From Minisyncoccota bacterium (GTDB taxonomy: Bacteria > Patescibacteriota > Minisyncoccia > Phycocordibacterales > JBAYGS01): a stretch of DNA of 64,000 nucleotides. The DNA lies in the NCBI GenBank assembly GCA_041666545.1, contig JBAYGS010000001.1:89942-153941 (forward strand), written 5' to 3'. This document shows positions 24,123-43,452 of the stretch, one piece after another. Under the pieces are notes generated by a model that was not told the origin of the DNA, did no database searches, and saw only the letters and a list, made by a program, of their open reading frames with translations. Positions within the stretch are counted from its first letter, which is position 1, and the number at the start of each line of letters is the position of its first letter. The translations under genes and the position numbers were made by a program.

Positions 24123-24123
24123 T

Positions 24124-24694: not shown

Positions 24695-24793
24695 ATGCTA
24701 AGCCAAAGAGCGATTGAGAAGATGTTGAGTATTAAAGAGGGGACTCGAATTACGGCCGAGGAGATGGCCAAGAGTTTGAAGATGGCCTTTTAA
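24695..24793 (+). CDS. small conserved peptide, copy A (MLSQRAIEKMLSIKEGTRITAEEMAKSLKMAF)
   Basis: Paralog of 26908..26991, inside a duplicated ~150-bp block. It is followed by a truncated copy of the hydrolase start (ATGAATTTTGAAGAGCAGTTTTAG). Confidence 0.35.
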   Translation: MLSQRAIEKMLSIKEGTRITAEEMAKSLKMAF

Positions 24794-24971
24794 TTAAAAT
24801 TTTGACTTTCCGCATGAATTTTGAAGAGCAGTTTTAGAATTTTTGCTGGTTGTTGGAACAATATTGCTCATGTTGACAGTAATATATAGAGTACTTATAC
24901 TTAACATCAGAGAACCGTAAATGCGGTTACTCCTAACAACCAGTCAAACCCCAAATGGTGAGGAAATCAGT

Positions 24972-25181
24972 ATGATAAGCAGACCAGTCCCCGACAGCTC
25001 TTTTGTGAAATCGAGCTACAGCCAGCCAGGAGGAATCATCAATTGTGTTGCCGTGGCCCGCACCCCCGATGTGGTGGCGGTTCGCGACACAAAGGATCCT
25101 TCCAAAACAACCCTCGCATTTACACACTCCGAATGGAAGGCGTTTTTGCAAGGAGTTCGTGCCGGTGAATTCGACATCTGA
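24972..25181 (+). CDS. DUF397-family protein
   Basis: SSYSQPGGIINCVAVA...VAVRDTKDPSKTTLAFTHSEWKAFLQGVRAGEFD matches the DUF397 signature known from actinobacteria. RBS gaggaa upstream; the ORF is open from 24921. Confidence 0.7.
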   Translation: MISRPVPDSSFVKSSYSQPGGIINCVAVARTPDVVAVRDTKDPSKTTLAFTHSEWKAFLQGVRAGEFDI

Positions 25182-26867: not shown

Positions 26868-26907
26868 ATTTTTCGGCAGAAAGATAGGGATTTGATATAA
26901 TACCCCC

Positions 26908-26991
26908 ATGCTAAGCCAAAGAGCGATTGAGGAAATGCTGGGGATTAAAGAGGGGACTCAGGTCACAGCCGAGGAGATGGCGAAATTATAA
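26908..26991 (+). CDS. small conserved peptide, copy B (MLSQRAIEEMLGIKEGTQVTAEEMAKL)
   Basis: Paralog of 24695..24793 with conservative substitutions. Immediately upstream of the intact hydrolase gene. Confidence 0.35.
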   Translation: MLSQRAIEEMLGIKEGTQVTAEEMAKL

Positions 26992-27013
26992 TCAGAATTT
27001 TTGAATTTGCAGT

Positions 27014-27829
27014 ATGAATTTCGAAGAGCAGTTTCGGAAAAAATTTTCAGTAACTGTCCGCGGTAAAAACATTTACTTTGTGGATGTTGCCCCAAATCAA
27101 GCGGTCGAGGTGCCGATTTTTTTGGGACCCGGTTGGGGAGAGACACCGAATACCTTTAAGGATACCATCCGGGTGTTATTTGAGGCCGGATTTCGGGTTT
27201 TATGTGTTGAACATTCAAGGCAGGATCTGAAATTGATTACAAAGGGCAATTTGCCTCATCTGGAATTACAAAAAGCTGAGACTATCCTGCAAATACTGGA
27301 GGCGCAGAAAGTGGACGCAGTCAGCCTGATTGCTCATTCTGAAGGAGCTATTAATTGTATTATATCGGCTTCGCTCCGGCCGGAACTTTTTCGGAACATG
27401 ATTCTAGTTGGACCCTGTGGCCTGATGCGAGAAGAGACATTCATTAAACTAGTTGGCCGTTTTATTCTGAACCTATTGGAGGGGGTGGCTAGAGCCGCTA
27501 GAGAACCGGCGGCCCGCGTTCGATTGTTGCGATCTGCTGAAGAAACCGCAAAATATTTTCTTAAGAACCCGATTATGGGCCTACTTGAGGGCGGAGCCAT
27601 TTCTCATACCAAGCTTTTGGTTCTTTTAGAAAAACTATACCGAAGCGGTCTCAAGGCTGTAATCATTCACGGCTCTGACGATTGGGTTTTCCCAATTAAA
27701 GGGATGCGAGACCTTAGAAATTTAAGCTACATAGACTTTCATTTGGTTAAAGGCGACCATCATGATATTTATGCCAATCCAAAAAATTACCTATCATTCT
27801 TTAAGGACAGTCTCGCTAAGACAAATTGA
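27014..27829 (+). CDS. alpha/beta-fold hydrolase
   Basis: Nucleophile elbow AHSEG, conserved Asp/His downstream. 271 aa. Confidence 0.65.
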   Translation: MNFEEQFRKKFSVTVRGKNIYFVDVAPNQAVEVPIFLGPGWGETPNTFKDTIRVLFEAGFRVLCVEHSRQDLKLITKGNLPHLELQKAETILQILEAQKVDAVSLIAHSEGAINCIISASLRPELFRNMILVGPCGLMREETFIKLVGRFILNLLEGVARAAREPAARVRLLRSAEETAKYFLKNPIMGLLEGGAISHTKLLVLLEKLYRSGLKAVIIHGSDDWVFPIKGMRDLRNLSYIDFHLVKGDHHDIYANPKNYLSFFKDSLAKTN

Positions 27830-28769: not shown

Positions 28770-30413
28770 ATGGAGATATTTGCGATATCGGGTTTAATCA
28801 ACGGGATTGTCGCCACCGCGTTCGGTGTTCTTGTTATTTTAAAAAACTGGAAGGATCGTTCGAACCAGTTATACTTTTTGATGACTGCAGCTCTAGCTCT
28901 CTGGTCTTTCAGCTATTGGCAGTGGCTTTTATCTAGTGACTACACAACCGCCCTCTTTTGGGTGCGCACCCTCTCTGTTGGATCATTGTTTATCCCAATT
29001 TTTTTCTTTCATTGGGTCATTCAGCTAACTAAAAATAGGACATATAACTGTGTTGTTCTAAAAATTGTCTACGCAATCGCCGTAATCATTATCTTTTTTG
29101 TAAATTCACCACTTTTTATTGCAAACCTAGAAGGTAAATCGATTTTTACCTTCTGGCCAAATGCCGGAATGGTGTATGACATTTATTTTTCTTATATTTA
29201 TGTCGGCTTAATTCTTTATACAATTTATATTTTGATCCGCTCGTATCGACTTGCCGCTGACAACGATCGCAAGGGACAGATTCTTTACATACTCATCGGA
29301 GCGATTCTTGGTTTTGGTGGCGGTCTGACAAATTTCCCACTTTGGTTCGGGATTCCTCTTCCGCCATATGGAAATTTTCTGGTCGCCGCCTTTCCATTTT
29401 TGCTAGGCTACTCAGTTTTAAAGTTTAAATTATTCGACGCAAAAACAATCGCCACCGAGCTCTTAGTTTTCTTCATCGAAATTATTCTACTTGTCCAAGC
29501 CGTTCTATCCAAGTCGGCTACTGAAGCAGTCCTCAAAGGGGGTCTTTTCATCGTTGTCGGAATCTTCGGCTATTTACTTATTAAAAGTGTGTATCGCGAA
29601 GTTGAGCAACGCCAACAAATCGAGCAATTGGCCGCTAAGCTTGAAGCGTCGAATGAGGCCCTGGAAGGGGTTAACAAAAATTTGGCGGTGGCGAATGAAA
29701 AGCTGAAGGAGTTGGATCAGCTGAAAAGTGAATTTGTGTCGCTGGCAACCCATCAAATCCGCGGCCCGCTTACCGCGATCAAGGGCTACGCGTCACTCAT
29801 TATGGAAGGAGATTACGGCCGAATTTCGGCCAAGGTGAAGGAGGCGCTCGACTATATTTATAAATCGACCGAATCACTTGTCCTCGTGGTTAGTGACTTC
29901 TTGGATGTCTCGCGCATCGAGCAGGGCCGAATGAAATATGATTTTAAAATTTTTGATTTTCGAGATTTGGTGAAAGAGATTGTCAATGAATTAAAACCGA
30001 ATATCGACAAAGCCGGCCTGAATTTTACTTTTGAATCCAAGGAGGAGGAAAAATTCCCAATCAACGGCGACCAGGTCAAACTCAAGCAGGTCATCGCCAA
30101 CATCATCGACAATTCGGTCAAATACACACCTAAAGGCTCCGTCAAAGTCTCCGTCACTAAGCATGGCAAGAAAATCAAGTTTGCCGTCAAGGATACGGGG
30201 GTGGGAATTTCGCCAGATACTCTGCCGAGACTCTTTGCCAAATTTAGCCGCGCCCAAGATGCCAGCTTGACCAACACTAGCGGCACAGGTCTCGGTTTGT
30301 ATCTCGCCAAAGCCATCATCGAAGCCCATCAGGGCAAAATCTGGGCCGAGTCGGAGGGGAAGGGGAAGGGTTCACAATTCTATGTCGAACTTGACGAAAC
30401 TAAGAAAATTTAG
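28770..30413 (+). CDS. sensor histidine kinase with N-terminal 7TM domain (no cognate response regulator in window)
   Basis: H-box HQIRGPLTAIKGY, N-box IIDNSVKYT, G1 DTGVGIS, G2 GTGLGLYLAK. Seven predicted TM helices. Confidence 0.85.
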   Translation: MEIFAISGLINGIVATAFGVLVILKNWKDRSNQLYFLMTAALALWSFSYWQWLLSSDYTTALFWVRTLSVGSLFIPIFFFHWVIQLTKNRTYNCVVLKIVYAIAVIIIFFVNSPLFIANLEGKSIFTFWPNAGMVYDIYFSYIYVGLILYTIYILIRSYRLAADNDRKGQILYILIGAILGFGGGLTNFPLWFGIPLPPYGNFLVAAFPFLLGYSVLKFKLFDAKTIATELLVFFIEIILLVQAVLSKSATEAVLKGGLFIVVGIFGYLLIKSVYREVEQRQQIEQLAAKLEASNEALEGVNKNLAVANEKLKELDQLKSEFVSLATHQIRGPLTAIKGYASLIMEGDYGRISAKVKEALDYIYKSTESLVLVVSDFLDVSRIEQGRMKYDFKIFDFRDLVKEIVNELKPNIDKAGLNFTFESKEEEKFPINGDQVKLKQVIANIIDNSVKYTPKGSVKVSVTKHGKKIKFAVKDTGVGISPDTLPRLFAKFSRAQDASLTNTSGTGLGLYLAKAIIEAHQGKIWAESEGKGKGSQFYVELDETKKI

Positions 30414-30483
30414 CTAGAATACAAGGGAACAGCCGATAGGTGTCGGATTTGCTCCAAAAAAACCCAAAATGAAAGGCGATTGT

Positions 30484-30633
30484 ATGGATTCCCAGGCCCA
30501 ACAACCCTTCATGTTCGGTTTCAAGGTTAGCGTCGACTTGAAAGAAGAGGTCGCTAACTCGCAGGCGTGTGGCGGTACCTACTACACCACAAGCTCCGGC
30601 GGAAGAGAAACCGAATATGATGAGGACCCGTAA
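30484..30633 (+). CDS. candidate graspetide (microviridin-like) precursor peptide
   Basis: 49-aa ORF absent from the track. Leader QQPFMFGF resembles the PFFARFL recognition motif. Core TYYTTSSGGRETEYDEDP is rich in Thr/Ser donors and Asp/Glu acceptors. RBS aaagg; alternative start at 30469. Confidence 0.4.
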   Translation: MDSQAQQPFMFGFKVSVDLKEEVANSQACGGTYYTTSSGGRETEYDEDP

Positions 30634-30678
30634 GTTTTGACGGAACAAGCACACACTTTGATCAGATCAGATTTCTAG

Positions 30679-31179
30679 TCAAAGTGTTTTTTTATTAAGT
30701 CTCACCAGTTTAGCTTTTATTTCCTTTAGGGTTGGGACATTAAACTCAATCCTTTCCGAGTCGGTCGTTTTTGGATCGATCGGAAACAGCTTCCACCTGC
30801 CGGTCTTAATGTTTCTCTGAAATTGAGTCCCGAATTTCTGCTTTAATCCTTGTTGGGTGAGAATTCGGTCTGTGACGGCAGCGAAAAGCCATTTCGCTGG
30901 TTTATAATTCCTTTCCATACTCCCATTGACAAGTCGCAAGGCAATTTTTGTGTCGGAGAGCTTGCCACTATGGTGAAATATCATAGCTGCGCAGTAAAAT
31001 TCCTTACCATTCTTTAGTTGTCCACTTTTAACTATCCGCTTAGCTTCTGCCAGTCGATAGTTGTCCCTCTTAACCATAAGAGCGAAGTCTTTTTCGAAAA
31101 GTTTCGCTTTTCTATCTCGTTGGCCAGCTAAGAACAGACCCACAATTTTACTCAATCTTTTCCTTGACATGTCTACCAT
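30679..31179 (-). CDS. hypothetical protein
   Basis: 166-aa ORF between the precursor candidate and the ATP-grasp gene. Confidence 0.45.
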   Translation of the reverse strand: MVDMSRKRLSKIVGLFLAGQRDRKAKLFEKDFALMVKRDNYRLAEAKRIVKSGQLKNGKEFYCAAMIFHHSGKLSDTKIALRLVNGSMERNYKPAKWLFAAVTDRILTQQGLKQKFGTQFQRNIKTGRWKLFPIDPKTTDSERIEFNVPTLKEIKAKLVRLNKKTL

Positions 31180-31231
31180 GCTATATTACTCTAATTTTGA
31201 AGTCAACCGAACATTCAAAAATTGAGGATTT

Positions 31232-32185
31232 ATGATTCTTATTCTAACCAAGTCCTACGACCCAACGGCAGATTTTGTCTGTGAAAAAGCAAAAATGCGC
31301 GGGATAGGAGTTCACAGGGTTGATCTGGACTCCTTGCCGAAAGAAGGAACAGTGTCGATCATGGGTAACGGCTCCTGGGCTATTGATGCCAACACCGGCA
31401 AAATCGATAGCAGGGAGATTAAAAGGGTGTGGCAAAGGCGAATTCCCACAATCAAAATGGGGTTTCCTGACCCAGAAGCAAACGAGTACGCGGAAAAAGA
31501 ATGGAGACTATTGTTTGAGTGGTGGATTAATTCACTTCCGGATGGCCGGGTGTTGGATCCCGAGCACCGGCTAAAATTCGCTTACAACAAACTCCTTCAG
31601 CTTCAGTGTGCGAAACGAGTGGGATTGACTGTTCCTGACACCTTGGTCACAACAGACAGGGTGCTAGTGGAGCAATTTTATGAAAAGCACGGTGGCATGA
31701 TTGTTGTCAAATCTCTTGGTGGTTTTGGTAAAGTCCATACCGATCGGCAAGAGTTTGAAGCGATCTATACGAGCCAAGTTACAGAAAAGGATTTGGCTAG
31801 ATTATCGGAATTGAAATGTGTGCCAGTTGTTTTCCAGACCTGTATCGAAAAACTCTACGAGATCAGGGCAACGGTCGTAGGTGATCAAATCTTCTCTTGC
31901 AAAATTGAGTCCCAAAAGAGCGAGAAAACTAAAATCGACTGGAGAAAATATGATTTCAAGAATGTGCCACATACTCAGATTGAATTACCACCCGCAATTA
32001 ATGAGAAAATTCTCTCTGTGATGAGCACCTTCGGAATTCACTTCGCCTCCTTTGATCTTGCGTTTGACCAGTCCGGCCAGTACATTTTTTTTGAAATGAA
32101 CCCTAATAGTCAATGGGTTTGGATTGAAAATCTCACCGGCATGCCGATAACCGAAGCGTTGCTAGACTATCTTAACTGCGACTAA
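31232..32185 (+). CDS. ATP-grasp peptide maturase (MvdD/MdnC-like graspetide ligase)
   Basis: Collinear blocks with microviridin MvdD: VWQRRI, KLLQLQCAKRVGL, VTEKDLARLSELKCVPVVFQ, IRATVVGDQIFS, IDWRK, YIFFEMNPNSQWVWIE. Confidence 0.7.
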   Translation: MILILTKSYDPTADFVCEKAKMRGIGVHRVDLDSLPKEGTVSIMGNGSWAIDANTGKIDSREIKRVWQRRIPTIKMGFPDPEANEYAEKEWRLLFEWWINSLPDGRVLDPEHRLKFAYNKLLQLQCAKRVGLTVPDTLVTTDRVLVEQFYEKHGGMIVVKSLGGFGKVHTDRQEFEAIYTSQVTEKDLARLSELKCVPVVFQTCIEKLYEIRATVVGDQIFSCKIESQKSEKTKIDWRKYDFKNVPHTQIELPPAINEKILSVMSTFGIHFASFDLAFDQSGQYIFFEMNPNSQWVWIENLTGMPITEALLDYLNCD

Positions 32186-32197
32186 AACAACCACGCA

Positions 32198-32224
32198 AAC
32201 CCGATGTATTTTGTCGGGTTTTTA
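32198..32224 (+). terminator. intrinsic terminator after ATP-grasp gene
   Basis: acccga-tgtattttg-tcgggt followed by ttttaaatttt. Confidence 0.6.
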
Positions 32225-32261
32225 AATTTTGCAATCTTTTGAAAAAATTATTAGGAGCTAC

Positions 32262-32333
32262 ATCTGGGCCGAGTCGGAGGGCAAAGGCAAAGGCAGCCAG
32301 TTTTATGTGGAGTTGGAGGCTAAACCAGATTAG
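32262..32333 (+). pseudogene. histidine-kinase 3'-end remnant (IWAESEGKGKGSQFYVELEAKPD*)
   Basis: Translates to near-identity with the last 20 aa of the 28770..30413 kinase. No start codon and no upstream kinase body. Confidence 0.6.
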
Positions 32334-32528
32334 TAAATTTGGTCGCCCGAACCGTTCGGAACGGTTTTAGGGAGGCGAGGGATTAGTTGAGAAGTTAAAA
32401 AGCCCCGACGCTTGTCGCAAGGTCGGGACCCCGACTGAAACGCCGGGGTTTTGAAGTTGGGAGGTTTGGAAGTTTAGAAGGTAGTGGACTTATTGCGCAT
32501 CCAATTTCGCTGTGGTATTATTTACGAT

Positions 32529-32735
32529 ATGAGCACAATCGCTATTCCCAAAACAATAACTAAGGGGGAGGAACTAGTCATTATTCCTAGACGGGAGTAT
32601 GATCGCTTTTTAGCCATTATTTCCGGCAATGAAGAAATAAAAGGTGATGATGTTCTACGCTGGTCTCGAGAAGCTAAAAGACTTAAAAGAGCTGGTAAAT
32701 TACCTCTTCTGAACTCTCTTAAAAATCTTTTGTAA
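32529..32735 (+). CDS. Phd/YefM-like antitoxin
   Basis: Small acidic protein; VIIPRREYDRFL resembles the YefM core. Overlaps/abuts the downstream RelE-family toxin. The ORF is open from 32484. Confidence 0.45.
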   Translation: MSTIAIPKTITKGEELVIIPRREYDRFLAIISGNEEIKGDDVLRWSREAKRLKRAGKLPLLNSLKNLL

Positions 32736-32743
32736 AAGATTGC

Positions 32744-32998
32744 ATGAAAATTTATTTTCATCCACGATTTGCAAAGTCATTTAGCAAATTGTCGACTACG
32801 CTCAAGGCAAGGGCAATCGATAGGGAAAAGATATTTCGAATTAATCCGTTTAATTCGAGTCTCGATACTCACAAACTTCACGGAAAATTAAGAAATCAAT
32901 GGAGTTTTTCGGTTAATAGAAAGTGTAGAATTATTTTTGAATTTGTCGACAAGAATGTCATATTCCTCGACATAGGGGACCACTCACTATATCAGTAA
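32744..32998 (+). CDS. RelE/ParE-family toxin
   Basis: HKLHGKLRNQWSFSVNRKCRIIFEFVDKNVIFLDIGDHSLY is the characteristic RelE/ParE C-terminal core. Confidence 0.7.
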   Translation: MKIYFHPRFAKSFSKLSTTLKARAIDREKIFRINPFNSSLDTHKLHGKLRNQWSFSVNRKCRIIFEFVDKNVIFLDIGDHSLYQ

Positions 32999-33007
32999 TT
33001 TTAGATT

Positions 33008-33112
33008 CTCGCCAAATCAATCATCGAAGCCCACCAAGGCAAAATCTGGGCCGAATCCGAGGGTAAAGGTAAGGGGAGTCAGTTTTATGTGGAGCTGGGG
33101 GCCAAGGAATAA
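33008..33112 (+). pseudogene. histidine-kinase 3'-end remnant (LAKSIIEAHQGKIWAESEGKGKGSQFYVELGAKE*)
   Basis: Near-identical at protein level to the last 35 aa of the intact kinase. No start codon. Confidence 0.6.
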
Positions 33113-33190
33113 TTAGGACTCGGTAATTTAAGCCCCCTCCTGTGAGGTACGCTACCTTAAAGGAGGGATATAACGAATTAAAATCATTTC

Positions 33191-33658
33191 ATGAAAAGAA
33201 ACCGTTCAGCTGGAATAGTAATTAAGGACGATAAAGTTCTTGTGATGCATCGTATCAATAGAGGCGATGAATACTGGGTATTTCCTGGTGGCGGACAGGA
33301 AGACGGCGAAACATCAGAACAAACAGCGGTCCGTGAAATTGATGAGGAAACAACCATCAAAGTAAAGGTAGGAAGACCCGTATATCACATTACCTGGGAT
33401 ACGGGTGAAGAGAATTTTTTCTACCTCTGCGATTACATTTCAGGAGAGCCGAAATTGAGATCGGACTCGGAAGAAATTCATCAGATGAAGAGTGGCAAAC
33501 AAGTATATGAACCAATGTGGATCGAGATTAGTAAACTGTCCGAACTCAAGCTTTATCAATTGGAAGTACGAGATTTATTCTTGAGAGACTATAAGTCTGG
33601 TTTTCTAGAGCACATGCAAGAATTATTCATTAAGCTCGCCGAGCGAAGACATAAGTAA
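33191..33658 (+). CDS. NUDIX hydrolase
   Basis: Nudix box GGGQEDGETSEQTAVREIDEETT. Confidence 0.75.
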   Translation: MKRNRSAGIVIKDDKVLVMHRINRGDEYWVFPGGGQEDGETSEQTAVREIDEETTIKVKVGRPVYHITWDTGEENFFYLCDYISGEPKLRSDSEEIHQMKSGKQVYEPMWIEISKLSELKLYQLEVRDLFLRDYKSGFLEHMQELFIKLAERRHK

Positions 33659-33677
33659 ATTTAATAACAAAAGCCAT

Positions 33678-34286
33678 ATGAAATCTGGCAAATTACTTCT
33701 AACATCAACAGGTTTATCTTCTGGAAATATCGCAAAAAGATTTCAGAGTTTTTTTGCTGATCCTAGAAGCCAGACTGTTGCAATAGTAACAACGGCGGCA
33801 GAAGGTAAGGATCAAAATAAATATTCTCAATTGGCAAAAAAACAGTTAGAGGAAATGGGATTCGTTAAGATTGATTTTGTTGATCTTGAGGCAGAGCCAA
33901 GCAGAGACTTTTCTTCATACGGAGTTATCTATGTATGTGGAGGAAACACTTTTAAGCTTCTCAAATTTGCCCGAGAAGCAAATTTTAAAACTTCAATTGA
34001 AAACCTCCTGAGTCGAGGTGGTGTATATGTTGGCGTTAGTGCCGGAAGCATTATTGTCGGTCCTTCAATTGACATCACCAACGAGGTAGAACCCGAACCA
34101 AATGATATCGGCTTAAAAGATCTTGCTGGTTTTAGCATTACTAATCTTATTATTCTTCCTCATTATTCCTCAGAAAAGGAGCCGGCAACGGCTGATTTTG
34201 AGAAAAAATACGGAGTGAGAGTTGAGCGCTTGAACGACTCCCAGGCTGCTCTCCTAGAAAACGGAGAAGAAACTATTGTTGAATAA
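33678..34286 (+). CDS. peptidase S51 family (dipeptidase E/cyanophycinase-like)
   Basis: GGNTFKLL and GVSAGSII motifs. 202 aa. Confidence 0.6.
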   Translation: MKSGKLLLTSTGLSSGNIAKRFQSFFADPRSQTVAIVTTAAEGKDQNKYSQLAKKQLEEMGFVKIDFVDLEAEPSRDFSSYGVIYVCGGNTFKLLKFAREANFKTSIENLLSRGGVYVGVSAGSIIVGPSIDITNEVEPEPNDIGLKDLAGFSITNLIILPHYSSEKEPATADFEKKYGVRVERLNDSQAALLENGEETIVE

Positions 34287-34317
34287 AAATGGAGACACAC
34301 TTGCGTATGTCTCCATG

Positions 34318-35073
34318 TTAGAGCAACTTCTCAATATTACCTGTCAGATCCTTCACCCTTTTCCTTTTAGAAAGTCCGAGGGCGATTTCATAGATAGGCC
34401 GGTCCGAGGGCCGAAGGAGAATTGCTTGTCGCTCAAGCGAACGGAATCCACGGAGGTACTGGCGGCTGCGTGCAAACGCCAACCTGATCATTGCAGCTGT
34501 AGCATCTGAGAGGCATAGCTCTCGCTCGATGGTTGCATTTCCATGCAATTTTTCAAGTGTTGAGAGTTTTTGTTTTATCTCTTCAGTGCACAACTCAATG
34601 ATGTTTTTCGAGAGCAAAGCAGGATAGGGAATAAGTAACTCCCTCAAGCGGTCACCGGTGTCGGTTACGTCGTACAAAGTTTCAGCCGTAGCCAAATCTC
34701 CGCACAACGCCTCCGGCAACCAGTACCCGGTAGCCCATGAGCGATGTTGACCGCCCAGGTTCTTGCCCTTGATCCATCCTTCAACCTGCCGAACAAGTAG
34801 GGCCACATCGCAAACTGCGACACCACCCGTACCCGCTGGTAGATCAAAGCGTACGCTATCGTCGCACACGAAAAAGTTTCCATCAGGCCATCGTTTTCTC
34901 AGTAAAGATTCGATGATGGACGAATATGTCTCAATTCTACCCTCATCGCAACCTGCCAAGAGATCAATTTTGCCTTCCGACGAATTCCTCTTCCGTCCGA
35001 CACGTAAGAGCATTTTCATACCCTGCATCTCACGCAGAACGTGAGCAAGATCAGAGGTTACGCTACTTTTCAT
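34318..35073 (-). CDS. hypothetical protein (last gene of overlapping 4-gene operon)
   Basis: 4-nt start/stop overlap with the upstream AlaRS-like gene. GC-rich. No confident motif; possibly a nucleotidyltransferase-like fold. Confidence 0.45.
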   Translation of the reverse strand: MKSSVTSDLAHVLREMQGMKMLLRVGRKRNSSEGKIDLLAGCDEGRIETYSSIIESLLRKRWPDGNFFVCDDSVRFDLPAGTGGVAVCDVALLVRQVEGWIKGKNLGGQHRSWATGYWLPEALCGDLATAETLYDVTDTGDRLRELLIPYPALLSKNIIELCTEEIKQKLSTLEKLHGNATIERELCLSDATAAMIRLAFARSRQYLRGFRSLERQAILLRPSDRPIYEIALGLSKRKRVKDLTGNIEKLL

Positions 35074-36188
35074 AGCGCCCCCTTTCCGCGTTTCGCTTCC
35101 TCAAACCCGATTAAGGCCTTTGGAAAACCGAATGTGGATGCCAGATACTCGATGTCTGATTCGGTTAGAGGGCCATCCCTGTGGTAAACGAGCTTTTGAT
35201 ACTCTTTTCTCCCACGCTCAAGGCCTTTCTCGAATTTTGACACCTCTTCAGCAAATACGGTTTTCACCGTCTCGGCCGAAGACCACTGGTTTCCTGATAT
35301 CATGACAAACTCATCAAATGGAATCGATGCCTGCTGACAGAGGATGAATGCTTCTCGGATAAGTTTCCGAAGAACATAGTCCGCTGCCTTGTTTCCAGGC
35401 CGAAGCCCTTGTGATACCAGGATCACCGCCGCCTTGCCGAGATCGGCTAAGCGACACATGTTGGCTTGATCCTGAACTTTGGATCGTTTAGTGAGAGAGC
35501 TGACCACACCTACCCAGTTCGAGTTTTCATAGTCGCTTCGGCTGCACTCAACGGCAGTTACGATGCGATCAATACTAGCCCCTGAATCGGCAGCAATCAT
35601 CTCCAGCGGAGATTCAAAGAGGACTTCGCCTTGGAATTGGGTAAAGACCAAGTTCCAAAGTTCCATTGACTTCCCTGTGCCTGGATTTTGCCAAACAATC
35701 TCCGTACGAACGCCGCATCGGTTCCGAGTCGGTGTATAAGTGACGTTTCCATCATTGCTGATGATCCTAACACCTAGCCTTTCCCAGATTCTTTGAGACG
35801 TTTCATCTTGTGGGTGCACGGTCGCTGACAGTGTGCTGGGATTAATACCTAAGCACACCGTCAAATATCTCCATGCACTTTCGATCATCACATCCTTCAC
35901 TTCAGCTTCTTTGTCCTCGTAGAGGGAAAAGTGGCCAAGCATGTCGAATGCTAGATGATGCCTTCCTGAACGACCGATTTTCTCCCATCCATCAGTTCTC
36001 AAGCAGGTTTGCACCGAGACGACGCGACTACTTTTGGGAGATGTCCCATTAGAGATCGCGTCTTCGAATACAACTCCACCAGAGATGTTAAACAGGAGTT
36101 TCGGATTTGAACTTGCGATCGGAACACTGTCTTGCCACTTGAAACCGAAGGTCCCGAAGTGGCGCTTTATTTCAGCATACGACTTCAT
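35070..36188 (-). CDS. AlaRS aminoacylation-domain paralog (standalone, divergent)
   Basis: QTCLRTDG..HHLAFDMLGHFSL..IESAWRYLT..ELWNLVFTQFQ aligns with AlaRS QKCIRAGGKHNDLDDVG..HHTFFEMLGNFSFGDY..IQFAWELLT..EIWNIVFMQFNR. No editing or C-Ala domain. Confidence 0.6.
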   Translation of the reverse strand: MKSYAEIKRHFGTFGFKWQDSVPIASSNPKLLFNISGGVVFEDAISNGTSPKSSRVVSVQTCLRTDGWEKIGRSGRHHLAFDMLGHFSLYEDKEAEVKDVMIESAWRYLTVCLGINPSTLSATVHPQDETSQRIWERLGVRIISNDGNVTYTPTRNRCGVRTEIVWQNPGTGKSMELWNLVFTQFQGEVLFESPLEMIAADSGASIDRIVTAVECSRSDYENSNWVGVVSSLTKRSKVQDQANMCRLADLGKAAVILVSQGLRPGNKAADYVLRKLIREAFILCQQASIPFDEFVMISGNQWSSAETVKTVFAEEVSKFEKGLERGRKEYQKLVYHRDGPLTESDIEYLASTFGFPKALIGFEEAKRGKGAL

Positions 36189-37411
36189 GTGGAACCTCCC
36201 ATTGCCAAGTGTTTGAATACAGTCTGCCTGACTGCGTAGGTGAACTTGTTCATCACGGGATGAGTGACAAGTCCGTGGTTAGTGTCCCAACTTACGACAT
36301 GAGCCGGAATCCCGAGATTATCCAATATTGCCTGAGCACGTTCGATGTTCATGGAATATGCTGATCCATGAGCACAGATTTGCCGCTGAGCAAGAGGACA
36401 ACGAGACTCCTCACACTCGTGTCTGGCAAATGCCTGAACCGAAGTGATGCTAGGAATCTTGAGCATCCGAGTAAGCGCGCATGAGGATTTCAGGTATACT
36501 GGAACTCCAGAGAAGTGTTCAGCGCTCAAGGAAAAGATAAAGTCTATCAGATCTTGAGGCAGCATCTTCACATTGTCATTCTTAGGAATTTTTGGCATGG
36601 GAAGTTTGTGAATCTCCACCAGGCCATTTTCGATACCTTCAGTCCAACGCAATCCTCCAGGGATGATCATGTCAATGACGTTGCCATAGTGCTTTTCGAC
36701 CCAGAGCATCATCATTTCGATGCGATCCTTGTTTCCGCTCCATTCAGGAACGATCGGTCGCATGTACCATGCGATGGTGGCACCAGCTTCCTTTGCTTCT
36801 TCAGCATTCAGAAAGCGGTTGTTGTGAGCAGGTTCAATCGTATCAGGATTGTCTGCCCAGCACAGAGACAACATCAAGCCCCGCGTCGCATTTGTGATGC
36901 GGGCGATATCGAGCTTTCTCCCTTTCGGAACGCCACCTTTAGTGACGATCCAAAAGGGATTTCGCAGACCACGTTGCACGAATGCTTCCATGATCTCGAA
37001 TGTGCTATCTGTGACCGGTCCAGGAGCGAACGGTTCAGTGCTTGCGGTTCCGATGCTGATGATTGTCTCATTTGCAACGAAGAATGGATGCTTGATCAGT
37101 TCGTCGATGATTTGGTCAACGGTGAACTGATTGCGTCGCCTCGGTCTTTTCGGCATTGTGCCTTGATCAGCAAGATCCTGATTGGTGTCTTGCACGTGGC
37201 AGTATCTGCACTGCCACGAGCATCCAATCCAGAGATCAATACTCAGTGAGCTGTTAGACACACTGACGCACGAGAGGGGATGATTACTGTCAGGAACAAG
37301 AACTCCATACGTGTATTCACGCACAGAAAATTCTCGGCCCGTAGTCATCCCGTTGATTGTGACACGCGGTTCCGAACTGGCTGCCGCGAAGTATTCCTGT
37401 TTGGAATTCAT
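36185..37411 (-). CDS. radical SAM enzyme
   Basis: CSWQCRYC is the CxxxCxxC 4Fe-4S/SAM motif. 408 aa. Possibly SPL/COG1533-like. Overlaps both neighbours by 4 nt. Confidence 0.65.
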   Translation of the reverse strand: MNSKQEYFAAASSEPRVTINGMTTGREFSVREYTYGVLVPDSNHPLSCVSVSNSSLSIDLWIGCSWQCRYCHVQDTNQDLADQGTMPKRPRRRNQFTVDQIIDELIKHPFFVANETIISIGTASTEPFAPGPVTDSTFEIMEAFVQRGLRNPFWIVTKGGVPKGRKLDIARITNATRGLMLSLCWADNPDTIEPAHNNRFLNAEEAKEAGATIAWYMRPIVPEWSGNKDRIEMMMLWVEKHYGNVIDMIIPGGLRWTEGIENGLVEIHKLPMPKIPKNDNVKMLPQDLIDFIFSLSAEHFSGVPVYLKSSCALTRMLKIPSITSVQAFARHECEESRCPLAQRQICAHGSAYSMNIERAQAILDNLGIPAHVVSWDTNHGLVTHPVMNKFTYAVRQTVFKHLAMGGST

Positions 37412-38145
37412 GTGACAACTCCTTTCAAGTGGTTGATGTTGCGGTTTATTTGTTCTTCCGTCGTCATACCAATGACAACGGATGTTTTAAGCTGCAGGGC
37501 ATCTTTGACGAGCTGCTCGGCGGTGTGACTGGTAAGCAACTTACCCTGGCAGAAAAGACTTCTCAGAAGAATTTCCTTTTTCATCGCGAGTAAAGAAGGG
37601 AGCTGCTTAAGCACCCATTTTTGATTCCGATTGAAAGGAGCTTCGACAACATCAATGTAAGGCAAGACCTTATCACTGATGTCTGATGAAAAATCGTCTG
37701 GCAGAGAAATTCCTACCTTTTTAGCGATACCACTATCCTTCACCTCTTGCAGGTGCTGAAGAATAAACACTGCGTCTGACGACCATGAAGGAAGCCAGTT
37801 GTGCAGTAAGACTGTGTCGATCTGTGTTCTCCTGAGCCTACTCAGTGAGTTCTCTACACTTTGATCGAGATGATCACGCGAGTAGAATTCATTGATTGGA
37901 GCAGGAGCTTTCAAATCAGGTTTTTTGATCGCGGGAATTTTGGTCACAATGACCGCATCTTCCGGCAAGCATGAACCAAGTATCTCTTCAACTTCCCCTC
38001 CACCATAGACAGCCGCCGTATCAAAACGACGAATACCGTAGCTGATGGCGAAAAGTAGAAGCGATTCAATGTAGGCGGGGGACAGATTTTTGAACTGTCC
38101 TCCAAGTTGCCATGTGCCGAAGTAGAGCCGTTCAAACCATTTCAT
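37408..38145 (-). CDS. aldo/keto reductase
   Basis: GTWQLGG and FDTAAVYG N-terminal AKR signatures. Confidence 0.7.
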   Translation of the reverse strand: MKWFERLYFGTWQLGGQFKNLSPAYIESLLLFAISYGIRRFDTAAVYGGGEVEEILGSCLPEDAVIVTKIPAIKKPDLKAPAPINEFYSRDHLDQSVENSLSRLRRTQIDTVLLHNWLPSWSSDAVFILQHLQEVKDSGIAKKVGISLPDDFSSDISDKVLPYIDVVEAPFNRNQKWVLKQLPSLLAMKKEILLRSLFCQGKLLTSHTAEQLVKDALQLKTSVVIGMTTEEQINRNINHLKGVVT

Positions 38146-38310
38146 GTTTTTTCTCCTAATTTTGAGGTTGTTAAAGAGCTTTTAGTTAATTGCTTCTAGC
38201 ATAAGACTATAACAAAATCGGTGCCAGGTCAACTATACTCTTGTCAATAATTAGAATACATGTTAATCTATTCTAGGATTTGAAACCTTAACAAAAGAGA
38301 GGATACTGCA

Positions 38311-39603
38311 ATGAAACTGCCGTACAAGACAACAGAGGAAGTGCGCCAGACATTTCTGGGGCATTTTCTGAAACGTGATCATCGTCTCATCGAGCCATCA
38401 GGGATCATCCCAAAGAACGATCCGACCCTCATGTTCATTAACTCGGGCATGGCTCCGCTCAAGCCCTTCTTCACGGGCCAAGAGAAGCCCCCATCCCCAC
38501 GTCTGACGAATGTGCAGGACTGCATCAGGTTTGTGGATGTTGAAAGCGTCGGCGACTCTTATCACGGAACGAACTTTCGGATGATGGGGTCGTGGTCCTT
38601 CGGAGATTATTTCAAGGAACGAGCTATTGAGCTTGCCTTTGAACTCATTACCGACGGATTCGGAATCCCTGTTGACCGACTTTCTGCCACAGTATTCATG
38701 GCCGACGAAAGTCTACCCGGTGTGCCGAGCGATGAAGAGTCAGCCCGTATCTGGGAAAAGTTCCTGCCACGAGATCGTATCATTGGCCGACCGCCAGTCG
38801 ATAACTTCTGGGGTCCAGCTGGAACCAGTGGTCCATGTGGACCGTGCACTGAAGTTTTTTTTGATCGAGGTGAGGAATTCGCCGAGAAAAAAATCGACGA
38901 CGTGCTGGTTCCTGGGCGGCACATTGAGATCTGGAATGCCGGAGTGTTCATGCAATACTTCAAGGATGAGCAGGGGAATTTTTCCTCGCTTCCTATGAAG
39001 TGTGTGGATACAGGCGCAGGGCTCGAGCGTTTCGCAATGATTCTTCAGGATCGTGCTTCGATTCACGAAATCGATCAGTACGATTTGACCTATCAACTCA
39101 TCAATCAGCGCGTTGGTGATACGGCATGGACACGGGTCATACTTGATCATGTCAAGACCTCGATTCTGATGATTCGGGAAGGTATCGTCCCAAGCAACAC
39201 TCGGGAAGGGTATCTTCTCCGTCGTGCGCTTCGGCGTGCAATGATTGGTGTCTTCCTGCGGGGGATCAATCTGACCATTCTTCAGGAGTGGGCAGACTCC
39301 CTTAGTCAAGTGATTGATAACAAGGACCTGACCTTCCGTCAGAAATCTGTTATTGCTCACTGGCTCAGCGAGGAGCGTGACAGCTTCGAGAAGCTGATGC
39401 GTCGCAGCAGGAAGTATCTCGACAAGATCGTGGCCTCTAAGGAGTTGGATGCGCAACACGCATTCACTTTGAAAACCGGCATAGGCATCCCCGAAGATCT
39501 TTTGGAGGAATTCTGTGTTCGTCAAGGCATTCTGTTTCCGAAGGTTGAGTTCCTTCGACTTATCGGGGAACACCGGAACATCTCTCGTCGGCCGAAGAAG
39601 TAG
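38311..39603 (+). CDS. alaS: alanyl-tRNA synthetase, N-terminal aminoacylation + tRNA-recognition half only (430 aa)
   Basis: FINSGMAPLKPFF, QDCIRFVDVESVGDSYHGTNFRMMGSWSFGDYFK, GPCGPCTEVFFDRG, EIWNAGVFMQYF, VDTGAGLERFAMILQ. Ends with a strong terminator at 39622-39653. No editing or C-Ala domains. Confidence 0.8.
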   Translation: MKLPYKTTEEVRQTFLGHFLKRDHRLIEPSGIIPKNDPTLMFINSGMAPLKPFFTGQEKPPSPRLTNVQDCIRFVDVESVGDSYHGTNFRMMGSWSFGDYFKERAIELAFELITDGFGIPVDRLSATVFMADESLPGVPSDEESARIWEKFLPRDRIIGRPPVDNFWGPAGTSGPCGPCTEVFFDRGEEFAEKKIDDVLVPGRHIEIWNAGVFMQYFKDEQGNFSSLPMKCVDTGAGLERFAMILQDRASIHEIDQYDLTYQLINQRVGDTAWTRVILDHVKTSILMIREGIVPSNTREGYLLRRALRRAMIGVFLRGINLTILQEWADSLSQVIDNKDLTFRQKSVIAHWLSEERDSFEKLMRRSRKYLDKIVASKELDAQHAFTLKTGIGIPEDLLEEFCVRQGILFPKVEFLRLIGEHRNISRRPKK

Positions 39604-39741
39604 TTCTTTCGGCAACAAACAAGCCCACCTCGTTCATATCGGGGTGGGCTTTTATTTTGCTACCCCCAAGTCATCCAGAGATGATTTTTGTTAAAAGGTT
39701 ATCTTGAGTTTCCCATCGGTTCCATTCGAAGGTAGGATCGG

Positions 39742-39807
39742 ACCGAATCCGAAGGTAAGGGCAAGGGTAGCCAATTCTATGTGGAGGTTGAGGAAGCAAG
39801 GGATTAG
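39742..39807 (+). pseudogene. histidine-kinase 3'-end remnant (TESEGKGKGSQFYVEVEEARD*)
   Basis: Third degenerate copy of the kinase C-terminus. Followed by the junction motif agggattagttgagaagtt shared with the 32262 remnant. Confidence 0.55.
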
Positions 39808-39904
39808 TTGAGAAGTTTTGAAGTTTAGATGTTGAGGAGTTAAAGAGTTTTAGAATTAAGCTGAGGTTGTTTTATGACACAAAATATGCTATTCTATCAA
39901 ATAT

Positions 39905-40150
39905 ATGATTTCAGAATTTGTTGAAAATAAGCTTAAAAATGCTCTATATAAAATCCTAGAAGACAAGACCTACTTTGGCGAAATCAAAGGGGTTAAGGGT
40001 GTTTGGGCAAATGCCAAAACCCTTGAGTCTTGTCGGGCAGAGCTCCGTGAGGTGCTTGAGGATTGGATTTTACTGCAAGTGCGAAACGGAAACAAAATCT
40101 CCGGCTTACCACTGAGTTTCGATCGACGCAAAGATTTTTCCTATGCCTAG
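39905..40150 (+). CDS. hicB: HicB-family antitoxin
   Basis: UPF0150-like small protein (EIKGVKGVWANAKTLESCRAELREVLEDWILL) overlapping the downstream HicA. Confidence 0.55.
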   Translation: MISEFVENKLKNALYKILEDKTYFGEIKGVKGVWANAKTLESCRAELREVLEDWILLQVRNGNKISGLPLSFDRRKDFSYA

Positions 40151-40355
40151 GAACATCTCGCTTCGGATGTTAGTTAAAAAGTTTCGGGCACTGGGTTTTG
40201 ACGGCCCCTATTCCGGTAGTCGTCATCTTTTTATGGCCAAAAGGGATCTAAAAGTGAGAATCCCCAACCCACACAAAGGCGACATTTCAAAACATTTGGT
40301 AGCAGAGATACTTAGGCAGGCGGAAATTACAAGTGACGAATGGGAAAAAGCATAA
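40143..40355 (+). CDS. hicA: HicA-family toxin (mRNA interferase)
   Basis: KKFRALGFDGPYSGSRHLFMAKRDLKVRIPNPHKGDISKHLVAEILRQAEI matches the YcfA/HicA fold signature. Confidence 0.6.
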   Translation: MPRNISLRMLVKKFRALGFDGPYSGSRHLFMAKRDLKVRIPNPHKGDISKHLVAEILRQAEITSDEWEKA

Positions 40356-40362
40356 TCAGCGA

Positions 40363-41817
40363 CTATACCCTCGGCCTCATGAGAGGGAAAAGCTGAGCTT
40401 CGCGGATGCTTTTACCAGAGAGGAAACTGAAGAGTCGCTCCGAGACACCGAAACCAAACATCGGCGGCATGCCATATTCCATCGCCTCAACATATTCAAA
40501 GTCGGCCATTTGGGCCTCTTCATCGCCGGCATCACGGAGTTTTTGCTGTTTTTCAAAGCGCTCACGCTGATCGATAGGATTATTAAGCTCATTAAAAGCC
40601 TTGCCAACTTCACTACCCGCCAGGACAATCTGAAAGCGATCAACTACCCGATTATCTTTAGCATTCATCTTAGCGAGTGGTTCCAGATACACCGGAATAC
40701 CAGTCAAAACTGCCGGACCGCCGAGAGTCTTGCGGATTTGCTTCCAGAGCAAATCCACGCCTCGCCCGACATCAATCTTGGGTTCGTGAGGAATTTTTTC
40801 TTTTTTCAGAGAATCAAACACCGTGTTCAAATCAACCGTGCAGGGGTCAAAACCATATTTTTCAGACATCAGGTCGTTGTAATCAAGCTTTTGCCAGTCT
40901 GCCCCGAGATCAATCTCAAACTTTCCAATCGTAAATTTCAGAGTGCCGAAAGTTTTCTGGGCGACTTCGCGATACAAATCAATCAACATCGGCACACCCT
41001 TTCTCGCATCTTGAAAAGCCTCGTAAAATTCGAAGTGAGTGTAGTCTTGAGCGTGTTCGTAGGACATACCTTCGTTTCGGAACACTCGTCCGATTTCAAA
41101 GGTTTTTGGAATCCCGCCGACCATCAACTTCTTGTGCCACAATTCGGTCGAAATGCGAAGATAAACATCCAAGTCCAAGGCATTGTGGTGAGTGATAAAA
41201 GGTCGGGCTTCAGCGCCACCAGTTTTGGTCTCCAGAATCGGAGTTTCAACTTCAACAAAACCCCGCACAAGCATAAACGAACGGACCGCATTCCAAAAAA
41301 TCGAGCGCTTCCTCGCAATTTCGGCCACCTCGGGATTTAAAAGCATATCCAAGTAGCGTTTGCGGTACCGTTCATCCTCATCCTTCAGACCAAACCATTC
41401 GTCCGGCACTTGGCGCAGACTTTTAGCGAGCATTCGCCAACTGGTGCCGAGTAGGGAATTGGCCCCGCGTTTGGTAGTAAATGGGGTGCCTGTCACCTCT
41501 ATAAAATCGCTGGTATCAACTGTTTCAGTGAACAATTTAAAACTGTCCTCACCCAAGTCATCTTTCTTAATCAATGCCTGGACACGAGCGGTGCCATCAA
41601 ACAAATCGACGAAAATAATGCTACCTTGATCTCGACGAGACATAATCCGGCCAGCCAGGGTGACCGACTTTCCGGATTTCAAAAGCGCCTCAAAAGACTC
41701 GGCAAAAGTCCGATTATCATGACTACGAAAAGACTCGGCCGGATAAGGATCGATGCCGTGTCCCCTCAATATTTCCAATTTGGCCAGACGCTCAGAGCGT
41801 GTATCTTCGATAGACAT
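40363..41817 (-). CDS. lysS: lysyl-tRNA synthetase (class II)
   Basis: N-terminal OB domain, class IIb motifs. 484 aa. Confidence 0.9.
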   Translation of the reverse strand: MSIEDTRSERLAKLEILRGHGIDPYPAESFRSHDNRTFAESFEALLKSGKSVTLAGRIMSRRDQGSIIFVDLFDGTARVQALIKKDDLGEDSFKLFTETVDTSDFIEVTGTPFTTKRGANSLLGTSWRMLAKSLRQVPDEWFGLKDEDERYRKRYLDMLLNPEVAEIARKRSIFWNAVRSFMLVRGFVEVETPILETKTGGAEARPFITHHNALDLDVYLRISTELWHKKLMVGGIPKTFEIGRVFRNEGMSYEHAQDYTHFEFYEAFQDARKGVPMLIDLYREVAQKTFGTLKFTIGKFEIDLGADWQKLDYNDLMSEKYGFDPCTVDLNTVFDSLKKEKIPHEPKIDVGRGVDLLWKQIRKTLGGPAVLTGIPVYLEPLAKMNAKDNRVVDRFQIVLAGSEVGKAFNELNNPIDQRERFEKQQKLRDAGDEEAQMADFEYVEAMEYGMPPMFGFGVSERLFSFLSGKSIREAQLFPLMRPRV

Positions 41818-41859: not shown

Positions 41860-41945
41860 TTTCATCAATCGTTAAGAACCCTTACGAATAGGGCATGCGA
41901 ATACAAAGAAGTTAAGAACCCTTACGAATAGGGCACACGAATATA
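41860..41945. repeat. two ~26-bp direct repeats (gttaagaacccttacgaatagggca) plus a cluster of seven ACGAAT hexamers
   Basis: Seen directly in the lysS/glyQS divergent intergenic region. Confidence 0.6.
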
Positions 41946-42120: not shown

Positions 42121-43452
42121 ATGAAAAAAGCTCCCGCCAAGGACAACCCGGCCGTCATGGAGGATATAATCTCACTCGCCAAGAGGCGAGGCTTTATCTA
42201 TCAAGGCTCCGAGATTTACGGCGGTCTTTCCGGAACCTGGGACTACGGCCCTTTGGGTGTGGCACTTAAAGACAACATCCGCCAGATTTGGTGGAAACAA
42301 TTTGTACTCGACCGTGACGATATGTACGGGATGGATGCCGCGATTTTGATGAATCAAAAAGTTTGGCAGGCGACCGGCCACGCGACTAACTTTTCCGACC
42401 CTCTCACCCCATGTCTAAAATGCAAAAAACAATTCCGCACTGACCACCTAAACGGCGCCACCAAGTGTCCGGAATGTGGGGGCAATTTCGGCCCAGAGAG
42501 AAAATTCAACATGATGTTTAAGACCAATGTCGGCCCTGAAGAAGGTGGAGGAAGTTTGTCATATTTGCGACCGGAAACCGCTCAAGGTATGTTTGTGAAT
42601 TTCAAAAATGTTTTGGATTCCTTCCATCCTAAATTGCCTTTTGGTCTGGCCCAAGTCGGTAAGGCTTTCCGAAACGAAATCTCGCCTCGAGACTTCACTT
42701 TCCGAGCTCGTGAGTTTGAACAAATGGAGATTGAATATTTTGTTAAACCAGAGGGTTGGGAGAAGATTTTTGAACATTTCGTTTCTGAAATGAGAAACTT
42801 TATCTCGGCCGTTGGAATTTCTGCGGACAAAGTCCACGAAAAAGAAATCGGCGATGCCGATCGGGCCTTTTATTCCAAACGCACGATTGATTTTGAATTT
42901 GATTTCCCTTTTGGCCAAAGCGAGCTTTACGGCTTGGCTTACCGTACCGATTATGACCTGAAAGCCCACGAAACCGAAAGTGGCAAGACTTTGGTTTATA
43001 CTGACACCGAAGCCAACGAGACTTTAGTGCCACACTGCATCGAGCCATCATTTGGTCTTGATCGAACCGTTTTGGCGGTCCTTTCAAGCGCCTTCAAAAA
43101 AGAGAAAACTGGCGAGGATGAGAGGATTGTTTTGAAATTTAACCCTAAAGTTGCTCCGGTATTGCTCGCAGTCTCGCCGCTTCTCCGAAACAAGCCGAAG
43201 TTGGTTGAAAAAGCCCAAGAAATCTACAAAACCTTGAAAAAGGAATTTGGCCGAGTGATGTTTGATGACAATGGCAACATCGGCAAGCGTTATCGCAGGC
43301 AAGATGAAATCGGCACGCCATTTTGCATTACTGTCGACTTCGACACCATTGAAAAAGATGACACTGTCACTGTCCGTGACCGAGACACGATGGAACAAGT
43401 CCGAATTAGATCCGACGAACTCGTCTCATTTTTTAAGAACAAATTAGCCTAG
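42121..43452 (+). CDS. glyQS: glycyl-tRNA synthetase, dimeric (glyQS-type)
   Basis: Eukaryote/archaeal-like class II GlyRS motifs. 443 aa. Confidence 0.9.
   Translation: MKKAPAKDNPAVMEDIISLAKRRGFIYQGSEIYGGLSGTWDYGPLGVALKDNIRQIWWKQFVLDRDDMYGMDAAILMNQKVWQATGHATNFSDPLTPCLKCKKQFRTDHLNGATKCPECGGNFGPERKFNMMFKTNVGPEEGGGSLSYLRPETAQGMFVNFKNVLDSFHPKLPFGLAQVGKAFRNEISPRDFTFRAREFEQMEIEYFVKPEGWEKIFEHFVSEMRNFISAVGISADKVHEKEIGDADRAFYSKRTIDFEFDFPFGQSELYGLAYRTDYDLKAHETESGKTLVYTDTEANETLVPHCIEPSFGLDRTVLAVLSSAFKKEKTGEDERIVLKFNPKVAPVLLAVSPLLRNKPKLVEKAQEIYKTLKKEFGRVMFDDNGNIGKRYRRQDEIGTPFCITVDFDTIEKDDTVTVRDRDTMEQVRIRSDELVSFFKNKLA

Follow-up and report, generated by a model that had tools for sequence, protein, structure and literature searches.

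We analysed a 64-kb window (the whole stretch under study, 64,000 nucleotides of contig JBAYGS010000001.1 from a Minisyncoccota bacterium), in which an intact sensor histidine kinase gene is followed by three start-less copies of its own 3' end, named F1, F2 and F3 (Table 1). The kinase has a complete HATPase_c domain (positions 1-110 of the 111 in the Pfam profile are covered). Its orthologues in Paceibacterota are 42-62% identical and the closest relative in a set of 5.8 billion proteins is 62% identical, and a query with its C-terminal 109 amino acids returned short fragments only, from short contigs for the most part. We refer to the 3' end of this gene, which encodes ...FYVELDETKKI before the stop codon, as the live or K-type tail; the displaced tails end in ...VELEAKPD (F1), ...VELGAKE (F2) and ...VEVEEARD (F3), each likewise at a stop codon. 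All copies lie on the same strand as the kinase and each marks the left end of its own block of cargo genes, and the 10 kb between the kinase and the lysyl-tRNA synthetase (LysRS) gene resolve into four units, A to D, each composed of a tail, its native downstream sequence or terminator, and cargo, the smallest units being 0.6-0.75 kb long.

The initial annotation had placed three kinase-tail fragments in this region, and repeat search, tblastn and nhmmer agree on all of them, with the start of F2 refined to 33007/33008 and the homology of F3 traced to about 39729. Repeat family D2 joins the kinase end (30334-30400) to the three copies (32257-32323, 33039-33105 and 39731-39797), and repeat D5 pairs 30302-30391 with 33007-33096 at 81%. 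The last 60 kinase residues, used as a tblastn query, recover F1 at E = 2.5e-8, F2 at E = 1.5e-15 and F3 at E = 1.5e-6, and with an nhmmer profile of the tails the E-values run from 1e-30 to 1e-14, no additional tail copy being detected in the window. A fourth, minimal remnant of 26 nt between F1 and F2 corresponds, at 24 of 26 positions, to the end of F3 together with the native sequence downstream of F3. The fragments start at codon -23 (F1), -34 (F2) and about -25 (F3) of the kinase. F1 and F2 have an intact reading frame and no start codon, and the first 15 nt of F3, at its 5' edge, contain a 1-nt deletion and a stop codon. F2 starts 9 nt past the stop codon of a toxin gene, and the terminator scan places F1 and F3 each directly 3' of the terminator of the preceding gene.

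The tails differ from one another in DNA and hardly at all in the protein that they encode. The peptide IWAESEGKGKGSQFYVE is 100% conserved over the 17 codons common to the tails, with F3 having ESEGKGKGSQFYVE (14 codons), and DNA identity across the common codons is 75-86%. Compared with the live tail, F1 shows 10 synonymous and 0 non-synonymous codon differences, F2 shows 11 and 0, and F3, over its 14 codons, shows 8 and 0; in each pair of tails 7-11 codons differ, all of them synonymously, and when an equal number of changes was placed at random, the peptide was kept in 0 of 20,000 trials. Because the differences are exclusively synonymous, each copy must have diverged while serving as the functional end of a kinase. 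Local duplication in place followed by neutral decay is ruled out by this pattern, and the copies, which had been called degenerate in the initial annotation, are not so at the protein level.

An arrangement with the units in the opposite order is found on a related contig, L051, which encodes a kinase relative (P0050) with an F1-like C-terminus. On this contig, genes for an acyltransferase and a HAD protein precede a kinase gene that carries a live F1-type tail, with the same downstream hairpin as in the window, and an MNT/HepT toxin-antitoxin (TA) pair; these are followed by a start-less K-type fragment, the small open reading frame (ORF) and DUF6624-like gene that also occur in unit A, HD and HIT genes and the glycyl-tRNA synthetase (GlyRS) gene, which forms the right end of the variable interval there. 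The displaced fragment runs from codon -58 to a K-type end (VELDETNK), and a 17-nt insert interrupts it. Window positions 30241-31217 are 81% identical in DNA to L051 positions 4411-5405 (about 1 kb), and in L051 this segment follows the displaced K-type fragment. In both genomes the first unit supplies the working tail, and the TA genes behind the F1-type tail differ (RelE/HigB-like in the window, MNT/HepT in L051). The F1 tail and the 47 nt downstream of it differ from the live kinase end of L051 (3541-3659) at 6 of 119 nt and are thus 95% identical, as against 75-76% identity between the GlyRS and the tryptophanyl-tRNA synthetase (TrpRS) genes of the two genomes (excess for the F1 module, P = 1.4e-8), and we conclude that this module was shared recently.

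These data bear on two less elaborate origins. Chance similarity, low complexity or metagenome mis-assembly is hardly conceivable: the GKGKG codons of the tail do form a short 6-nt repeat, but chance and low complexity are excluded by E-values of 1e-6 to 1e-30 and by a protein conserved across synonymous change, and the flanks are shared with L051, whereas the initial annotation had left room for chance resemblance confined to the coding remnant. Mis-assembly is excluded as well, because the same 20-kb stretch is present in three independent assemblies from different samples, at 99.97-100% identity and with an identical layout. Alternatively, the fragments might be remnants of full-length kinase paralogues, or of tandem duplications in place, whose 5' parts were later deleted. 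Tandem kinase pairs in a relative (L005) and, in L031, an isolated decayed tail that comes from another type of kinase and lies upstream of the kinase operon speak for such an origin, but the L005 paralogues are about 35% identical, compared with 95-100% protein identity among the tails here, and purely synonymous divergence excludes decay after in-place duplication. Moreover, the F1 module shows 95% identity with the tail that is live in a second genome, and three or four independent deletions would be needed, all stopping in the last 60 codons. We consider this origin very unlikely.

Live and displaced tails also share blocks of exact identity. The first 20 nt of F1 are identical to the live gene, with a 6-codon identical run at its 5' edge (P = 0.004), and in L051 a 16-codon identical run (about 50 nt) is common to the live and displaced tails (P = 0.008). 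These blocks indicate crossover or conversion between the tails, and with the F1 module they constitute recombination mosaics in the homologous flank. A window-like donor for the 5' part of the L051 fragment was rejected, since the sequence there is almost the same as in L051's own gene. Taken with the synonymous divergence, the permuted order in L051 and the shared F1 module, the identity blocks bear out the proposal in the initial annotation that this is a recombination hotspot at which small cassettes entered serially at the kinase 3' end.

An unrelated gene in the window has also had one of its ends duplicated. Here the direct repeat measures about 160 nt (24676-24842 and 26889-27042, about 83% identity) and comprises the leader of an abhydrolase gene, containing a small ORF (MLSQRAIE[K/E]ML...), and the first 8 codons of that gene, the left copy ending in MNFEEQF and a stop codon; the repeat flanks a 2.2-kb insert that encodes a DUF397 protein (24921-25181) and an ABC-F ATPase (25257-26867). 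This 5' duplication is the mirror image of the kinase-tail footprint, and the fact that duplicative insertion also took place at a gene with no relation to the kinase speaks for a general mechanism, probably driven by homology, and against a kinase-specific attachment site.

No integrase, transposase, resolvase or recombinase family of Pfam was matched among the cargo genes or the scanned ORFs of at least 100 amino acids across the rest of the 64-kb window, where housekeeping genes were found, and no recombinase is present among the gene calls of L051 (13.6 kb). The window does not contain genes for DNA uptake or RecA-type recombination. Other classes of element were considered and rejected. 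No tRNA gene or Rfam family was found in 28-42.5 kb, which speaks against a tRNA or other RNA gene as the true target, and a phage or viral origin was rejected for lack of a match to the tail pattern in viral contigs. Integron or dif-type sites were discarded because no integrase was found and the repeat search revealed no inverted repeat common to the cassette ends, and a diversity-generating retroelement because the window has no reverse-transcriptase match in Pfam and only 1-3 of the 7-13 mismatches involve A in either copy.

With moderate confidence, we attribute the array to duplicative recombination into the conserved kinase 3' end, most likely by host homologous recombination acting on DNA that was taken up. 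The host pathway is favoured because no recombinase was found, the fragment starts are variable, the tails carry mosaic identity blocks and a second footprint of the same kind exists. On this model, a unit would enter through recombination in the last 23-58 conserved codons of the live kinase gene, the incoming tail would take over as the working kinase 3' end, and the earlier tail would be pushed downstream as a start-less fragment along with its old cargo, so that repeated entry would yield the order K (live), F1, F2, F3. Units would move between related Paceibacterota lineages, and the tail copies would then act as homology for further exchange. Entry might proceed by a single crossover of the Campbell type, with a tail-bearing circle as partner, or by a double crossover with a tail copy as one arm, and in neither case would a dedicated integrase be needed. 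We infer this direction and order of events, as well as the nature of the recombination enzyme. Patescibacteria have been reported to keep genes for DNA uptake and homologous recombination and to carry genomic islands (PMC12455944).

Several observations weigh against this model. For RecA-type recombination, an identity block of 20 nt is short, and the starts of F1 and F3 near ATCTGGGCC hint at a preferred, possibly site-specific, crossover point. Our search for recombinases covered 64 kb of the genome, and a recombinase could act in trans. The population's three assemblies showed neither a circular form nor an empty site, and tail duplicates are absent in about 13 other orthologous kinase loci, being confined to the lineages of the window and L051. 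Finally, there is no tail copy at the left edge of a GC-rich gene cluster in unit C, and hence not every insertion here used the tail route.

Another explanation is classical site-specific tandem accretion, in which elements with a tyrosine or serine integrase and a surrogate tail would have inserted one after another at the kinase 3' end, the units being decayed remnants like cis-mobilizable elements (CIMEs) and the integrase being lost or encoded elsewhere in the genome. The layout is exactly that of attL/attR repeats derived from a target 3' end with the target kept intact, and it fits the CIME/accretion model (PMC5704250); in addition, the starts of F1 and F3 are no more than about 8 nt apart, and the exact 20-nt block common to K and F1 lies there. 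We nevertheless regard site-specific accretion as unlikely, given that the 64-kb window and the 13.6 kb of L051 yielded no integrase, that fragment starts range from codon -23 to -58 and that no stretch longer than about 5 nt is invariant throughout the six tails. The tiny size of some units (0.6-0.75 kb), the similar duplication at the 5' end of an unrelated gene and the lack of a match in viral contigs point the same way.

The variable starts could also be accounted for by one-sided homology imports of DNA from related strains, each anchored in the conserved downstream tRNA-synthetase genes and joined illegitimately on the left, which would leave a chance part of the donor kinase end in place. 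Such imports would likewise explain the donor-type synonymous divergence, the missing recombinase and the constant strand and order, and F2 and the L051 fragment indeed start just 6-9 nt past the preceding stop codon. They would leave unexplained why all left ends fall in the last 23-58 of 547 codons, why there are identity blocks with the live tail and why the unit order is reversed between the window and L051 with a constant right flank, and we hold them to be quite unlikely. Duplicative recombination within the tail remains the reading that we favour.

Comparison of synteny in relatives, as recommended in the initial annotation, showed the same conserved flanking genes with different content between them. 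The interval from the kinase to GlyRS is empty in L007, where GlyRS directly follows the kinase at an emptier site, and measures 11.7 kb in the window, as against 3.7 kb in L051. In L032 a DUF6922/AbiEii pair (an AbiE-type TA system) lies right after the kinase, and in L028 an MvdD-like ATP-grasp gene occupies this position. The kinase flank is therefore a general hotspot, and the tail-bounded array is so far limited to the window/L051 lineage. A GlyRS-based search added two further loci, L052 and L053, which were not informative. The isolated tail of L031 (7504-7617) is start-less and frame-damaged, belongs to a different kinase type (LFLAKEMVTAHHGTIREKSMGEGGLTFIVESEPFTKV, followed by a stop codon) and lies 24 nt past the stop codon of an unannotated ORF of 479 amino acids, 2.4 kb upstream of the kinase operon of that genome.

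The initial annotation had also described a junction motif shared by two of the fragments and suggested that the junction serves as a cassette attachment site. The 19-nt motif AGGGATTAGTTGAGAAGTT does occur exactly twice, after F1 (32378-32396) and at the end of F3 (39799-39817), where 0.01 occurrences are expected; it is itself composed of the last codons and the native downstream sequence of an F3-type tail, and the first part of the junction after F1 is the fourth tail remnant. Octamer repeats of the GAAGTTT type, which are enriched in the window (4 matches, 0.64 expected), are not specific to the junction, because similar repeats lie near 10160, upstream of a housekeeping tRNA-synthetase gene. 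An attachment function of the junction is not borne out by these results: the recombining homology is the kinase tail itself and not the junction motif. In unit B, the junction is broken by a 56-nt hairpin-rich insert that is missing from the F3 junction and of which no second copy was found in the window or in any locus, and this single occurrence led us to reject it as a repeated mobile element. The interpretation offered in the initial annotation is, as a whole, partly supported.

The array resembles several known systems and coincides with none of them. At tRNA and tmRNA genes, displaced 3' fragments stand at the far end of genomic islands and are used in island-finding. Here, too, an intact target with a downstream partial copy marks the boundaries, and serial events give rise to several partial copies; unlike at those genes, no integrase lies beside the target, and the target is protein-coding, which is why the copies differ at synonymous sites. 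Integron arrays and Xer-dependent dif/pdif modules consist of ordered small cassettes, often TA modules, with a recurring short sequence between them. The kinase array shares the ordered small cassettes, the TA modules and the recurring separator, but has no IntI, attI, attC structure or dif-like site, and its recurring sequence is the end of a coding gene, repeated in direct orientation.

Both integrative elements and CIMEs of the ICESt1/ICESt3 type undergo tandem accretion at the 3' end of a target gene (PMC5704250). In that process, as here, units are bounded by direct repeats of the target 3' end, the target is kept intact by a replacement end, arrays include integrase-less units, and TA modules are typical cargo. 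The present array differs in that no integrase was found in the sequence read, transfer genes are lacking, no constant core is evident, repeat lengths vary (from 72 nt up to about 190 nt), the smallest units measure just 0.6-0.75 kb, the host is an uncultured member of the Paceibacterota (Parcubacteria) within the Candidate Phyla Radiation (CPR) and the target is a sensor kinase. The minimal mobile elements of Neisseria swap one cassette for another within a pair of conserved flanking genes, a process that relies on transformation and homologous recombination (PMC3787668). They involve no recombinase, and none was found here in the sequence read; both systems have varied gene sets within the same flanks and mosaics in the flanks, and the phylum studied here is reported to be naturally competent; in Neisseria, however, cassettes are replaced with no duplication of the flank, whereas the kinase tail here has been duplicated three to four times. 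Because the flank is duplicated at each step, cassettes accumulate and do not replace one another. Accretion at a gene 3' end is thus already known, and the kinase-tail array, with its flank duplicated and no recombinase found, is a new form of it.

CPR bacteria (Patescibacteria) have tiny genomes with few recognisable mobile-element genes and nevertheless carry islands of foreign genes, whose route of entry is poorly understood. The kinase locus bears a concrete footprint, at the level of sequence, of insertions repeated at a single gene end; no integrase gene was found in the sequence read, and the replacement gene ends are accompanied by TA pairs and a set of peptide-modifying genes. Should homology drive the mechanism, naturally competent, streamlined bacteria would have in it a simple and general route of gene gain, and displaced gene ends could be used as islet markers in metagenome-assembled genomes. 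We tentatively raise the possibility of a recombinase-free gene-capture platform in CPR bacteria, in which taken-up DNA would insert in the tail via host homologous recombination, cassettes with replacement kinase 3' ends would pile up behind the gene, and the tails would provide the portable homology through which cassettes are later gained, lost and reshuffled; this might hold likewise at other conserved gene ends, such as the duplicated abhydrolase 5' end.

Table 1. Coordinates of the kinase gene, its tail copies, the units and their cargo (window positions).
Feature	Position	Strand	Unit	Content or basis
Intact sensor histidine kinase	28770-30413	+		HisKA_7TM (seven-transmembrane sensor), HisKA, HATPase_c (Pfam)
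Unit A	30339-32261		A	Live K-type tail; 54-aa ORF, DUF6624-like gene, MvdD-like ATP-grasp gene
Conserved small ORF, 54 aa	30469-30633	+	A	
DUF6624-like gene	30679-31179	-	A	Pfam
MvdD-like ATP-grasp gene	31232-32185	+	A	Pfam
Terminator closing unit A	32197-32221		A	Terminator scan
Unit B	32262-33006		B	F1 tail; short hairpin, junction, putative antitoxin, RelE/HigB-like toxin
F1, start-less kinase tail	32262-32333	+	B	IWAESEGKGKGSQFYVELEAKPD, then stop; repeat search, tblastn, nhmmer
Native sequence 3' of F1-type tail	32334-32380	+	B	Hairpin AACCGTT-CGG-AACGGTT, then TTTT; read from sequence
Fourth, minimal tail-end remnant and junction	32371-32396	+	B	GGAGGCGAGGGATTAGTTGAGAAGTT; 24/26 positions match 39792-39817
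Hairpin-rich insert breaking junction, 56 nt	32397-32452	+	B	
Putative antitoxin, 68 aa	32529-32735	+	B	
RelE/HigB-like toxin, 84 aa	32744-32998	+	B	PF05015, 28.1 bits (cutoff 27)
Unit C	33007-39728		C	F2 tail; Nudix, S51 peptidase, five-gene GC-rich cluster
F2, start-less kinase tail	33007-33112	+	C	LAKSIIEAHQGKIWAESEGKGKGSQFYVELGAKE, then stop; repeat search (D5), tblastn, nhmmer
Nudix hydrolase	33191-33658	+	C	Pfam
S51 peptidase	33678-34286	+	C	Pfam
GC-rich five-gene cluster	34318-39603		C	Composition profile, Pfam
Terminator closing GC-rich cluster	39621-39651		C	Terminator scan
Unit D	39729-40362		D	F3 tail; junction, HicB/HicA
F3, start-less kinase tail	39729-39807 (start approximate)	+	D	...ESEGKGKGSQFYVEVEEARD, then stop; repeat search, tblastn, nhmmer
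Junction 3' of F3	39808-39904	+	D	Octamer-periodic GTTNAGAA-type repeats, then HicB promoter region
HicB	39905-40150	+	D	PF21748, 89 bits
HicA	40143-40355	+	D	PF07927, 33 bits
LysRS, conserved right flank	40363-41817	-		Pfam
GlyRS, conserved right flank	42121-43452	+		Pfam

The cargo of units B and D consists of small two-gene operons with toxins of recognised families, HigB/RelE-like and HicA, respectively, as in type II TA systems. The initial annotation had named these modules YefM-like/RelE and HicB/HicA; the toxin of unit B does belong to the HigB/RelE family and HicB/HicA is clear, but the antitoxin described as YefM-like has no Pfam match. The HicB/HicA cassette lies directly against the stop codon of LysRS, a gene in convergent orientation. 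The five-gene cluster of unit C encodes a protein of 251 amino acids without a family match, two truncated AlaRS-like proteins (372 and 430 amino acids), a radical-SAM-like protein of 408 amino acids, for which the family match is weak, and an aldo/keto reductase. Its GC content of 49-52%, against a background of 42-44%, indicates that it is probably of foreign origin, and it may be a tRNA-dependent biosynthetic set. The 54-amino-acid ORF of unit A ends in ...ACGGTYYTTSSGGRETEYDEDP and adjoins the MvdD-like ATP-grasp gene, and the pair resembles the precursor peptide and ligase of a graspetide-type system. The L051 counterpart of this ORF (4661-4819) is 92% identical in protein, and the ATP-grasp gene is not adjacent to it there.

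To the right of the array, the divergent intergenic region between the LysRS and GlyRS genes contains two tandem 33-nt repeats, GTTAAGAACCCTTACGAATAGGGCAYRCGAATA, with a small hairpin in each (41871-41943) and no Rfam match. Paralogues of the DUF6624 family lie at 24124-24609 and 30679-31179, each adjoining one duplication-bounded insert, which may be a coincidence. A 29-nt element that contains the palindrome TTCGCGCGAA and then TAGAAT occurs at 22929-22957, 23255-23283 and 24095-24123, upstream of consecutive genes for an HTH_5 regulator, an acyltransferase and a DUF6624 protein, and looks like a shared promoter or operator. Just after a Nudix gene, the heptamer CTCACTA is repeated 14 times in tandem (22797-22896), and related low-complexity arrays are present at 55150, 55565 and 61382. 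Between ftsW and murG, and unrelated to the kinase array, a 23S-rRNA-intervening-sequence/Avd-like gene (55201-55578) has inverted arrays of heptamers on its two sides, TAGTAAG at 55150-55181 and CTACTAA at 55565-55603, which are 91% complementary.

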